From Gammaproteobacteria bacterium (GTDB lineage: Bacteria; Pseudomonadota; Gammaproteobacteria; DASZBR01): 64,000 bases of DNA. This document shows positions 42,524-44,732 of the stretch, piece by piece (position 1 is the first letter of the stretch; the number at the start of each line of letters is the position of its first letter). The position numbers and the translations under genes are program-made. Location: contig DASZBR010000017.1 in the NCBI GenBank assembly GCA_035943935.1, positions 61,794 through 125,793 on the forward strand, written 5' to 3'. The notes beneath the pieces were generated by a model, which was not told the DNA's origin, ran no database searches, and saw only the letters and a list, made by a program, of their open reading frames with translations.

Positions 42524-42584
42524 AATATATCGTAGTAACCTTAAGGAAATATTAAATTTTAGAATTTTTGGAATGTTTTTAGCC
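42524..42584 (-). promoter_or_regulatory. PmrA-box-type promoter upstream of the 1164-aa gene
   Basis: Minus strand reads GGCTAAAAACATTCCAAAAATTCTAAAA-TTTAATATT-TC-CTTAAGGTT-ACTACGA-TATATT. TTAA half-sites are at 42552-42555 and 42541-42544 (11-bp phasing). There are 11 nt from the proximal TTAA to the -10 hexamer (42524-42529). Confidence 0.6.
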
Positions 42585-42597
42585 ACTTTTGGGGAGC

Positions 42598-42876
42598 CTA
42601 TTTATTATTTTTGAGTCTTGGTGCTAACGAAGGTACAGCTTTTGCGACAATATCCACATTCCTCTGTGTTCTATTCAAAAAATCTCTCAGAGTTTGCTCC
42701 ATTTTCTGTTTTTTGTGTATGAGAGCACTAGGATCTTTGCCCTCTTTTATTGCTGCTTCAATTTCTTTATCTTTATTCAGAATGTAAGTAACTGCAGCTG
42801 ATCTGTGTTGGAGGTAGTTTTCGACATTTGTTTCGATTTTCTTCAGATAAGATTTTTTCGTGTACTCATCAAACAT
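42598..42876 (-). CDS. Small (~92 aa) hypothetical protein, second gene of a bicistron
   Basis: The track ORF starts at 42945, overlapping the upstream gene. The internal ATG at 42876 (MFDEYTKKSYL...) has a strong SD AAGGAGG 7 nt upstream, so I trimmed it. Confidence 0.55.
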   Translation of the reverse strand: MFDEYTKKSYLKKIETNVENYLQHRSAAVTYILNKDKEIEAAIKEGKDPSALIHKKQKMEQTLRDFLNRTQRNVDIVAKAVPSLAPRLKNNK

Positions 42877-42910
42877 TTTGCTTGCCTCCTTGTTAGCGAA
42901 AGTGTTGTTA

Positions 42911-44647
42911 CTAAAAATTACAACTGGCGCTCCGGCGGTGTTCACGGCTGTTTACAGCGGAGTTCACTGCATCATAGTCTTTGACCTTGGTTTCTACTAA
43001 TGGACGAATTGCTGCTGGAGCATTGGAGCGCAGCTGAGTATTTTCTACAGTCTCATCATTACCCGTTTTTTTTCTGGCAGGTGGTATTATTCTTAGAACT
43101 TGAGAAAAAGTTCTTGCGGCTGAGGTTTTTGCTTCACCGTTCGCTACGATAACTGCAGCTTCCCGGATTGCCGCTTCTGCTTCCTGAAGTCCTGCTTCAA
43201 CATCTCCTGGGGTACCTGGTTCTGACGAAGCACTACTTCTTGGTGTAGTAATCGAATCTTTCTTCGTTTCGTTGGTATCAGTATTTTCGGAGGTATTGGT
43301 TGCTGCCTCAACGGGTTTTTTCTCTGCAACATCTGCTGCAAGCGTAATATTGAAAAGTTCAAGTTTTGCTTTAAGGGTGAGTTCTTCAGCTTCTTTGACG
43401 CTTTTTTTCGCACTCGCAAGAGGTATCAATGACATTAAAAAACGAAATAATCTTGTAAGAGGTCCTGGGTTAGCCGTTTCTTCAATATAACTTACTGCAT
43501 TCACGACATTTTTTTTCTTTTCTAAATTATTCACGGGAGTTAAGAAAAAATCACTAAAGCTACCTTTTGCTATAGCTTGCTCGAATCCTCTTTTCTTTGT
43601 TTTTTCATAATTCCAGCTCTTCGAATCTAAAGATGATAAAAAGCTATCAAACGTTATTCCGTTCTTTCTGAATTCTTCCAGTAATTCTGTGTTCTTTTTC
43701 TTCGTACTATTTTCGCTATTCAAGGAACTATCACCAGCAGTAGTATTAGATGTGGGGGTTAGTGCTGGCCTGCTGACACTATTTTTTACAATATCTGGAT
43801 GAGATTCTTTAAACTTAGAAAGAGCTTCTAAACAGAAAAGCTTCTTTTTGCTACCAGTGCTATCTTTGGCTGTTTCACTGAGCATAACCAAAATAGCTTC
43901 TGCTTCTTTTTCACGGTTTTTAGATTTTAATGAACGAATAGCATCAGCTACTTCATTTGATGTTAAAACTTTTGGTTCACTAAAAAATAAAGCTGAAAGA
44001 AATTCTTTTTGAGATGCGTGACCGGATAAAGCGTATCTCAAAACAGAAGCTCGAATATGCGCAGGTTTTTTTAAGTGCTCGAAAATTTCACTAAGTTGTT
44101 CGCTTGTCGCAGCTTCGATTGTGCGGATAAGATGAATACGATGAGGATGCTGGTTTTCTTGAGATGATCCTAGAGAAAAAATCTCGACAATGGTTTCTGC
44201 TTGTTCTTTCGGCGTGAAGTGGTTAAAAGATTTTTGAAATTCCTCTCTGCTCATTGTCAGAAACTCAGGATTTGATACAAGCTTTAACTCAGATGTCAGT
44301 GCCGAAAGTTCGGCTTGAAAATAGCGAAGTAATTTTTTTGCTGCTTTTTTATGCTGGAGTGGTTTTAAAACATACTCGACAACATTTTTAAGGAATTGGC
44401 GTCGAGCATAGAGTGATGACGGGCTAGTGTTGTATGTTGCAACGGTTCTTTTAAGCTCGGTTAGCTGGGCTTGTGGCAGTTTTCCTTCTCCAAAAGTGGC
44501 TCGGTATAGAGTTCTTGCTGATTCAAGTTTTTTAAGGTCTGACACAAACTGGGCATTAGCGATAAAACCTGCTTTCTTAACACGAGCGCTGCCTGCTTCA
44601 AACGAAGAAACAGTTTTTCTGTCTTGCTCAGCGTATGTGGAATGCAT
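42911..44647 (-). CDS. 578-aa orphan protein; candidate Dot/Icm-type effector
   Basis: Long ORF, helical and low-complexity, with no recognisable motif. SD AGAGGT. A PmrA-like promoter lies upstream. Confidence 0.8.
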   Translation of the reverse strand: MHSTYAEQDRKTVSSFEAGSARVKKAGFIANAQFVSDLKKLESARTLYRATFGEGKLPQAQLTELKRTVATYNTSPSSLYARRQFLKNVVEYVLKPLQHKKAAKKLLRYFQAELSALTSELKLVSNPEFLTMSREEFQKSFNHFTPKEQAETIVEIFSLGSSQENQHPHRIHLIRTIEAATSEQLSEIFEHLKKPAHIRASVLRYALSGHASQKEFLSALFFSEPKVLTSNEVADAIRSLKSKNREKEAEAILVMLSETAKDSTGSKKKLFCLEALSKFKESHPDIVKNSVSRPALTPTSNTTAGDSSLNSENSTKKKNTELLEEFRKNGITFDSFLSSLDSKSWNYEKTKKRGFEQAIAKGSFSDFFLTPVNNLEKKKNVVNAVSYIEETANPGPLTRLFRFLMSLIPLASAKKSVKEAEELTLKAKLELFNITLAADVAEKKPVEAATNTSENTDTNETKKDSITTPRSSASSEPGTPGDVEAGLQEAEAAIREAAVIVANGEAKTSAARTFSQVLRIIPPARKKTGNDETVENTQLRSNAPAAIRPLVETKVKDYDAVNSAVNSREHRRSASCNF

Positions 44648-44670
44648 ATATAGTGTGACCTCTGTCGGCC

Positions 44671-44732
44671 ATTATATAGTATAAACCTTAAGAAAACATT
44701 AAGAGTTCAATATTTTTGGAGTGTTTTTAGCC
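44671..44732 (-). promoter_or_regulatory. PmrA-box-type promoter upstream of the 578-aa gene
   Basis: Minus strand reads GGCTAAAAACACTCCAAAAATATTGAACT-CTTAATGTT-TT-CTTAAGGTT-TATACTA-TATAAT. TTAA half-sites are at 44699-44702 and 44688-44691 (11-bp phasing). There are 11 nt to the -10 TATAAT (44671-44676). Confidence 0.6.

Follow-up and report, generated by a model that had tools for sequence, protein, structure and literature searches.

In the stretch of contig DASZBR010000017.1 analysed here (64,000 nucleotides (nt), positions 61,794 to 125,793, assembly GCA_035943935.1; the whole stretch is called the window), two sites on the minus strand, A and B, resemble the promoter element of the response regulator PmrA known from Legionella and Coxiella. 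The window is gammaproteobacterial housekeeping DNA (murA, metNIQ, rimP-nusA-infB, msbA, lpxK, lptD, amgK-murU, lolB, prs, and sufBCDS) broken up by large eukaryote-like genes. Site B follows murU and stands 24 nt upstream of the ATG of an open reading frame (ORF) of 578 amino acids (aa), and site A stands 50 nt upstream of the ATG of an ORF of 1164 aa. Each of these large orphan genes is followed by a small one, of 92 and 96 aa, respectively (Table 1). The nearest named relatives of the MurU protein belong to a ‘Coxiellaceae bacterium’ metagenome-assembled genome (55%) and to Rickettsiella (50%). Together with a DrrA/SidM-like domain and with giant proteins carrying Rab/Ras, ankyrin, and leucine-rich repeat (LRR) domains, these relatives are consistent with the Legionellales-like affiliation proposed in an initial annotation of this DNA.

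Table 1. Promoter elements and genes discussed in the text. Positions are those of the window; the promoters of related genomes are given by their sequences
Feature	Position	Strand	Remarks
Site B, box	44684..44703	minus	CTTAATGTT-TT-CTTAAGGTT; tandem YTTAAK repeat, TTAA cores 11 bp apart; about −39 to −20
Site B, −10 hexamer TATAAT	44671..44676	minus	7 nt past the 20-nt box; spacer TATACTA
Site B, upstream A-tract block	44712..44738	minus	AAAACTGGCTAAAAACACTCCAAAAAT; about −48 to −74
Site A, box	42537..42556	minus	TTTAATATT-TC-CTTAAGGTT
Site A, −10 hexamer TATATT	42524..42529	minus	7 nt past the box; spacer ACTACGA
Site A, upstream A-tract block	42564..42590	minus	93% identity with the site B copy
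L071 promoter			Box TTTAAGGTT-TC-CTTAAGCTT; spacer CATACTA; −10 TATACT
L070 promoter			Box TTTAAGTAT-TC-CTTAAGGTT; spacer GATACCT; −10 TATAAT
L072 promoter			Box CTTAAGCTT-TT-GTTAATGTT; spacer AATTCGA; −10 TATAAT
L073 promoter			Box CTTAATCTT-CC-CTTAAGAGT; spacer ACTCGGT; −10 TACACT
L074 promoter			Box TTTAAGGTT-TC-CTTAAGGAA; −10 displaced by one base
578-aa orphan gene	42911..44647	minus	Predicted target of site B; N-terminal half predicted helical, C-terminal half predicted disordered
92-aa orphan gene	42598..42876	minus	35 nt after the 578-aa gene; gene call, no family
1164-aa orphan gene	38980..42474	minus	Predicted target of site A; evolves fast; by position the orthologue of the post-murU gene of about 1000–1200 aa
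96-aa orphan gene	38648..38938	minus	After the 1164-aa gene; relatives have a 98–141-aa gene there, alignment weak
murU (MurNAc-1-P uridylyltransferase)	44746..45402	minus	Pfam NTP_transferase; synteny in L070–L073; putative ancestral promoter follows murU
LRR protein, 297 aa	within 18509–36524	plus	
2322-aa protein	within 18509–36524	plus	Four Rab/Ras domains and a DrrA/SidM-like segment (PDB 6yx5 match, E 1e-4)
Ankyrin protein, 1210 aa	within 18509–36524	plus	
Ras and TPR/Sel1 protein, 2126 aa	within 18509–36524	plus	

Both sites carry two YTTAAK hexamers separated by 5 nt in the −35 region, CTTAAT-GTTTT-CTTAAG in site B and TTTAAT-ATTTC-CTTAAG in site A. The distance from the proximal TTAA to the −10 hexamer is exactly 11 nt in both (GGTTACTACGA in A and GGTTTATACTA in B). 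The box positions relative to the transcription start assume that the −10 hexamer lies at −12 to −7. A scan with the sigma-70 consensus found no −35/−10 pair at either site, which fits a box that takes the place of the −35 element. Upstream of the box are A-tracts centred near −51, −62, and −73, that is, at 11-bp spacing. The sequences, the 11-bp phasing, the 11-nt distance, and the −10 coordinates agree with the initial annotation, whereas its box coordinates (42540–42558 for A and 44686–44705 for B) were 2–3 nt too high and are corrected in Table 1.

We scored the window with the PmrA matrix of Burstein et al. 2009 (PMC2701608, Table S5), which was derived from experimentally PmrA-regulated L. 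pneumophila genes. The matrix has 33 positions (the 20-nt box, 7 free positions, and the −10 hexamer) and was scored with the base composition of the window. Site B reached 30.5 bits and site A 23.7 bits, with a maximum of 32.5 bits. The third-ranking site, at 53534–53566, lies within a gene and scored 16.8 bits. Across 200 first-order Markov shuffles, the top score of each shuffle averaged 13.6 bits and at most reached 20.3 bits, and about 0.005 sites of at least 20 bits are expected per window. These scores, together with a box-to-−10 distance of exactly 7 nt and the missing −35, bear out the earlier match to the Legionella/Coxiella PmrA element. A further high-scoring consensus match at 4103–4122 on the minus strand was considered as a third site; it lies inside an ORF of more than 1736 aa containing a PP2C segment and has no −10 hexamer, so we took it as chance. 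No comparable box was found upstream of msbA, lpxK, the eukaryote-like giant genes, or the PP2C-containing gene, as had already been noted for the msbA-lpxK block and the PP2C gene.

The promoter is conserved at the orthologous place in five related uncultured genomes (L070–L074), which were reached via MurU homologues in JGI, NCBI, ENA, and Logan data and whose MurU proteins are 57–73% identical to that of the window. Four of the five (L070–L073, MurU 59–73%) share one layout: lptD, then on the opposite strand amgK-murU, a large orphan gene of 958–1201 aa, a small orphan gene, and an autotransporter gene, convergent with lpxK. The same four have the identical 7-nt spacing between box and −10 and matrix scores of 19.5–25.0 bits. 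In L074 (MurU 57%) a toxin-antitoxin-like pair is inserted after murU, followed by a 1196-aa orphan gene; the module adjoins the orphan and not murU, which indicates that it belongs to the orphan gene. In an ungapped stack of the seven promoters, the columns kept in at least six are TTAA..TTT.CTTAAG..T, TA.A.T, and two A-tracts, and the rest is variable. The stacked alignment thus has a conserved core, TTAA..TTTcCTTAAGgtT with TAtA.T and the A-tracts, and diverging flanks. This conservation of box and −10 in the orthologous promoters of five relatives is the evidence for selection on the site, and it lends the PmrA-type element of the initial annotation support from beyond the window.

Boxes of the same type also occur elsewhere in the clade. 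A 25.2-bit site (L071:14786–14818) precedes a 165-aa orphan gene, and two L074 sites of 24.8 and 21.4 bits (18353–18385 and 20441–20473) precede genes for proteins of 444 and 580 aa with no recorded Pfam family. Both of these L074 sites have an unusual −10, TATTCT, and similar leader sequences. The additional L071 and L074 sites lack the specific A-tract block, which leaves the box as the shared element. In about 160 kb of DNA from the clade, in which some loci are redundant, matrix sites of at least 19.5 bits occur at eight distinct promoters. In a more distant msbA-lpxK neighbourhood (L142), a PmrA-type site lies ahead of a 467-aa orphan gene. A scan with the published PmrA matrix thus works well for annotating metagenome-assembled genomes of this kind.

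In metagenomes, the pattern TTAATATTNCCTTAA-N11-TANNNT was found in at least 120 loci, mostly intergenic. Among the matches listed, about 70% are followed by an ORF of 50 codons or more that starts no more than 300 nt from the −10, commonly 20–60 nt downstream; the unconstrained positions are strongly biased to the full consensus, and the 20-mer CTTAATATTTCCTTAAGGTT occurs in nine loci. Most of the 46 downstream ORFs among these listed matches have no Pfam family, and the rest include T4BSS_DotI_IcmL, SoDot-IcmSS, and ankyrin. For example, a 1.1-kb metagenome contig (L168) carries CTTAATATTTCCTTAAGGAA followed by 7 nt and TATATT at about 990–1022 on the minus strand, 133 nt upstream of a DotI/IcmL-family gene (L168:183–857). 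The link between PmrA boxes and Dot/Icm effector genes that the initial annotation invoked has a parallel in metagenomes, where boxes of this type stand ahead of a DotI/IcmL gene and of a Dot/Icm substrate family.

The genes downstream of sites A and B are orphans. The 578-aa, 1164-aa, and 92-aa proteins have no Pfam or NCBIfam family, and the two large proteins have no homologue but themselves among 5.8 billion protein clusters. A HMMER search of 1.84 billion representatives gave only two weak partial matches for the 1164-aa protein. This protein aligns with the 1201-aa protein of L071 (25% identity over 514 aa, E 4e-23) and, as far as the alignment tells, is its distant orthologue. Within the 1164-aa gene, a direct repeat of 47 nt (41345–41391 and 41510–41556, 72% identity) encodes a repeated DIQFVE.YL..QLN motif that aligns to a single region of the orthologue in L071. 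For the 578-aa protein, the AlphaFold model is too poor for a fold search (predicted local distance difference test score, pLDDT, 49.6). The 92-aa gene is probably co-transcribed with the 578-aa gene.

Both large proteins have a restricted distribution, no housekeeping homologues, and hydrophilic N-termini with no signal peptide, as Dot/Icm effectors do. Their C-termini, ...ITEEVQKKAQRGISFRAGSDE and ...NSAVNSREHRRSASCNF, are polar, without EExxE. From the orphan distribution, the promoter type, and the neighbourhood, we infer that the 578-aa and 1164-aa proteins are candidate effectors, and the two complete-orphan operons are the best candidates in the window for secretion-system substrates.

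A PmrA regulatory element of the L. pneumophila icm/dot and effector (‘ceg’) promoters was reportedly described by Zusman and colleagues in 2007. The L. pneumophila element has the same tandem arrangement (cTTAATatT-N2-cTTAATatT), 7-nt spacer, TATAAT-like −10, and lack of a −35, and it likewise stands ahead of genes without housekeeping homologues. The proximal half-site differs, being CTTAAGGTT in this clade and CTTAATATT in L. pneumophila, and the host here is an uncultured lineage outside Legionella. In L. pneumophila about 40 effector genes are under direct activation by PmrA (PMC6989116, PMC12239595), and in C. burnetii the PmrA regulon takes in about 68 promoters, among them those of five dot/icm operons and of many ‘cig’ effector genes (PMC4117601, PMC7104363). 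C. burnetii has the same consensus in a second family of the order, and Coxiellaceae and Rickettsiella are the closest named MurU relatives of the window. The shared consensus of Legionella and Coxiella suggests that the pair of regulator and site is ancestral to Legionellales.

The enterobacterial PmrA/BasR box, YTTAAK-N5-YTTAAK, also replaces the −35 element (PMC10570014). Structurally, Klebsiella PmrA binds two YTTAAK hexamers 11 bp apart in place of the −35 and contacts RNA polymerase (PMC10570014). The boxes of pbgP(arnB), ugd, and pmrCAB resemble sites A and B in their two hexamers 5 nt apart (PMC10570014), in the AT-rich upstream region, and in a presumed OmpR/PhoB-type, class II-like activation. 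In the window, however, box and −10 are about 2 bp further apart (10 nt from the last hexamer to the −10, against 8 nt), and its targets are family-less orphans and not lipopolysaccharide-modification genes (arn/pbgP, ugd, pmrC/eptA). Since YTTAAK-N5-YTTAAK is the enterobacterial box too, the box alone is not diagnostic of Legionellales; the affiliation that the initial annotation read from it agrees with the other evidence, but the box by itself does not establish it. The A-tracts upstream of the box (at about −50, −60, and −70) are probably a UP-like or bent upstream element. As in the UP elements and phased A-tracts of sigma-70 promoters, they are 11 bp apart and conserved in orthologous promoters, whereas they do not closely match the E. 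coli UP consensus, and other PmrA-type promoters in the clade (L074-2, L074-3, and L142) lack this specific block.

We consider it likely that sites A and B function as sigma-70 promoters that have no −35 element and depend on an OmpR/PhoB-family activator of PmrA specificity, of the Legionellales type. A phosphorylated PmrA-type dimer would bind the tandem YTTAAK repeats at about −39 to −20 and recruit RNA polymerase to the −10 hexamer, which lies 7 nt further downstream, an arrangement as in the PmrA-dependent icm/dot and effector promoters of L. pneumophila and C. burnetii. Both promoters would be activated by a PmrA orthologue, and both operons would be expressed along with the PmrA regulon. 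In known relatives, this regulon includes the type IVB secretion system and a large number of the proteins that it translocates. The identity of the regulator, and activation over repression, are inferred here. The promoters add a clean case to a regulatory design that is already known and do not represent a novel type of element. They extend a design known experimentally in Legionella and Coxiella to an uncultured Legionellales-like clade, with conservation across species in place of experiments.

Several observations weigh against dependence on a PmrA-type activator. The window contains no pmrA/pmrB, no other response regulator, and no dot/icm gene. No OmpR-type regulator was found in any fetched clade locus by tblastn with a QseB probe; its matches were distant OmpR-type genes in unrelated metagenome loci only (L078 and L189) and are uninformative. 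The −10 at the orthologous site of L074 is one base off. Neither the 578-aa nor the 1164-aa protein has a eukaryote-like domain or a clear E-block at its C-terminus. A site overlapping the −35 region could serve a repressor. Finally, CTTAAG is palindromic, so that on sequence grounds another dimeric regulator is possible, and the boxes of L071 and L074 contain a perfect 6-nt inverted repeat, TTAAGG-N3-CCTTAA.

The self-complementary CTTAAG, the inverted repeat, and the lack of a PmrA gene in the window and the fetched loci favour another explanation, in which the promoters are real and regulator-dependent and the box is bound by a different factor of the clade. This factor would be an OmpR/PhoB-family protein or a dimeric helix-turn-helix protein acting on TTAAGG-N3-CCTTAA, perhaps a repressor, with a regulon that might be unrelated to type IVB secretion. 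YTTAAK-N5-YTTAAK is indeed common to several PmrA/QseB-type regulators of other orders. However, the near-maximum score with the L. pneumophila matrix and the identical 7-nt spacing to the −10 argue against such a factor. The inverted-repeat reading also fails in A, B, L072, and L073 (4 of 6 positions match), whereas the direct repeat fits all; there is no −35 at the sites to repress, and the same box variant precedes the DotI/IcmL gene of the metagenome contig. We regard a different factor as unlikely.

Sites A and B are alike beyond the box. They agree at 57 of 72 aligned positions (79%) over about 70 nt, a module of A-tract block, box, and −10, and the similarity breaks off abruptly at both ends. 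A 22-nt shared block, TGGCTAAAAACAYTCCAAAAAT, lies 8–9 nt upstream of the box, and no such match is expected by chance in the window. By this alignment, the two sites are copies of one promoter and not independent events. They therefore do not add up as the two observations for which they had been taken, and the PmrA box that had been recognised in them holds as a box and not as the full conserved unit, since that unit also takes in the A-tract block. An extension of the duplication into the murU 3' end or the 5' untranslated region was rejected, with no significant similarity outside the module. A duplication of genes as the source of the likeness was rejected as well: the 578-aa and 1164-aa proteins have no BLASTP similarity, and the 92-aa and 96-aa proteins are unrelated to each other. 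A family profile matched the 578-aa protein in just a 26-column motif (Y[IL]EET..PG; E 0.006, probability 6%). As the large proteins are not detectable paralogs, a promoter was duplicated, and a duplication of genes is not demonstrable.

The extent of the shared sequence and the lack of a terminator between murU and site B would also fit a short dispersed repeat or a rearrangement scar, with an incidental PmrA likeness and with the orphan genes transcribed by read-through from amgK-murU. We consider this very improbable. The module has only two copies in the 64 kb, and a scan for the A-tract block in 185,579 species genomes, the genome of the window not among them, gave only 63 single chance hits. 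It is retained at the orthologous site in genomes where MurU is merely 57–73% identical, it is conserved in blocks around TTAA-N7-TTAA and the −10, and in L074 it has moved along with the orphan gene and not with murU. In addition, site B agrees with the orthologous L071 promoter at 59 of 72 positions (82%), including a 25-nt identical A-tract block; the identity between A and B (79%) is not above this value, which points to constraint and not to a recent scar. A chance match within AT-rich intergenic DNA is already refuted, because, although bare TTAA-N7-TTAA is a common motif found at about its chance rate in the window (6 observed, 5 expected), the full-matrix scores are 3–10 bits over the best of the 200 shuffles, no site of at least 20 bits occurs in 484 kb of unrelated genomic loci that had been retrieved for a different purpose, and the sites are kept across species.

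Site B is as close to L071 as to A, which places it at the ancestral position after murU. Site A, judged from the same alignments, is the copy that now stands ahead of the orthologous large gene, with the 578-aa/92-aa pair between A and B. The promoter would be ancestral to the uncultured Legionellales-like clade, standing after murU and driving a fast-evolving large orphan gene and a small one. The 578-aa and 92-aa genes, a second pair, would then have come to lie between the promoter and the large orphan gene, with duplication of the ~70-nt promoter; as the promoter is present twice, each gene pair has its own copy. Tentatively, the ~70-nt unit may be a portable promoter cassette that was copied as a new, unrelated gene pair entered the locus, a reading that we hold possible but doubtful. 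If true, acquired or newborn orphan genes would be wired into a secretion-system regulon via promoter duplication and not by slow evolution of a site, and, if general in Legionellales, this would help to explain the co-regulation of large, fast-changing effector repertoires. The locus offers a concrete case of promoter duplication alongside gene gain at an effector hot spot, and this combination is its only mildly new aspect.

The interval between msbA and lpxK is an expansion hot spot without a PmrA-type box. It holds four eukaryote-like genes over about 18 kb (18509–36524, plus strand), whereas the relatives have a small LRR gene only (L070 and L072) or an LRR gene plus an ankyrin gene (L071). 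The ORF of more than 1736 aa lies after murA and runs off the window (1–5208, minus strand); its PP2C-phosphatase-like segment is short (NCBIfam, residues 653–720). Upstream of this ORF is a partial A-tract block (CTAAAAACCTACAAAAT) with no box, and the relative L067 has a 428-aa orphan there instead. A hicA/hicB toxin-antitoxin pair lies between amgK and murU (45399–46055, minus strand), two genes that overlap directly in L070–L073. Rfam gave no known RNA family in the intergenic regions and just three tRNAs in the window. One of them, tRNA-Leu(CAA) (50096–50182, minus strand), lies between the DUF1499 and lolB genes and overlaps the ends of both listed ORFs, whose true boundaries are thus probably shorter. 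The 344-aa protein at 37519–38553 (minus strand) is almost only an autotransporter beta-domain. Its counterparts close the orphan cassette in all close relatives, and in L074 and one JGI contig the gene at that place encodes a full GDSL-lipase autotransporter.

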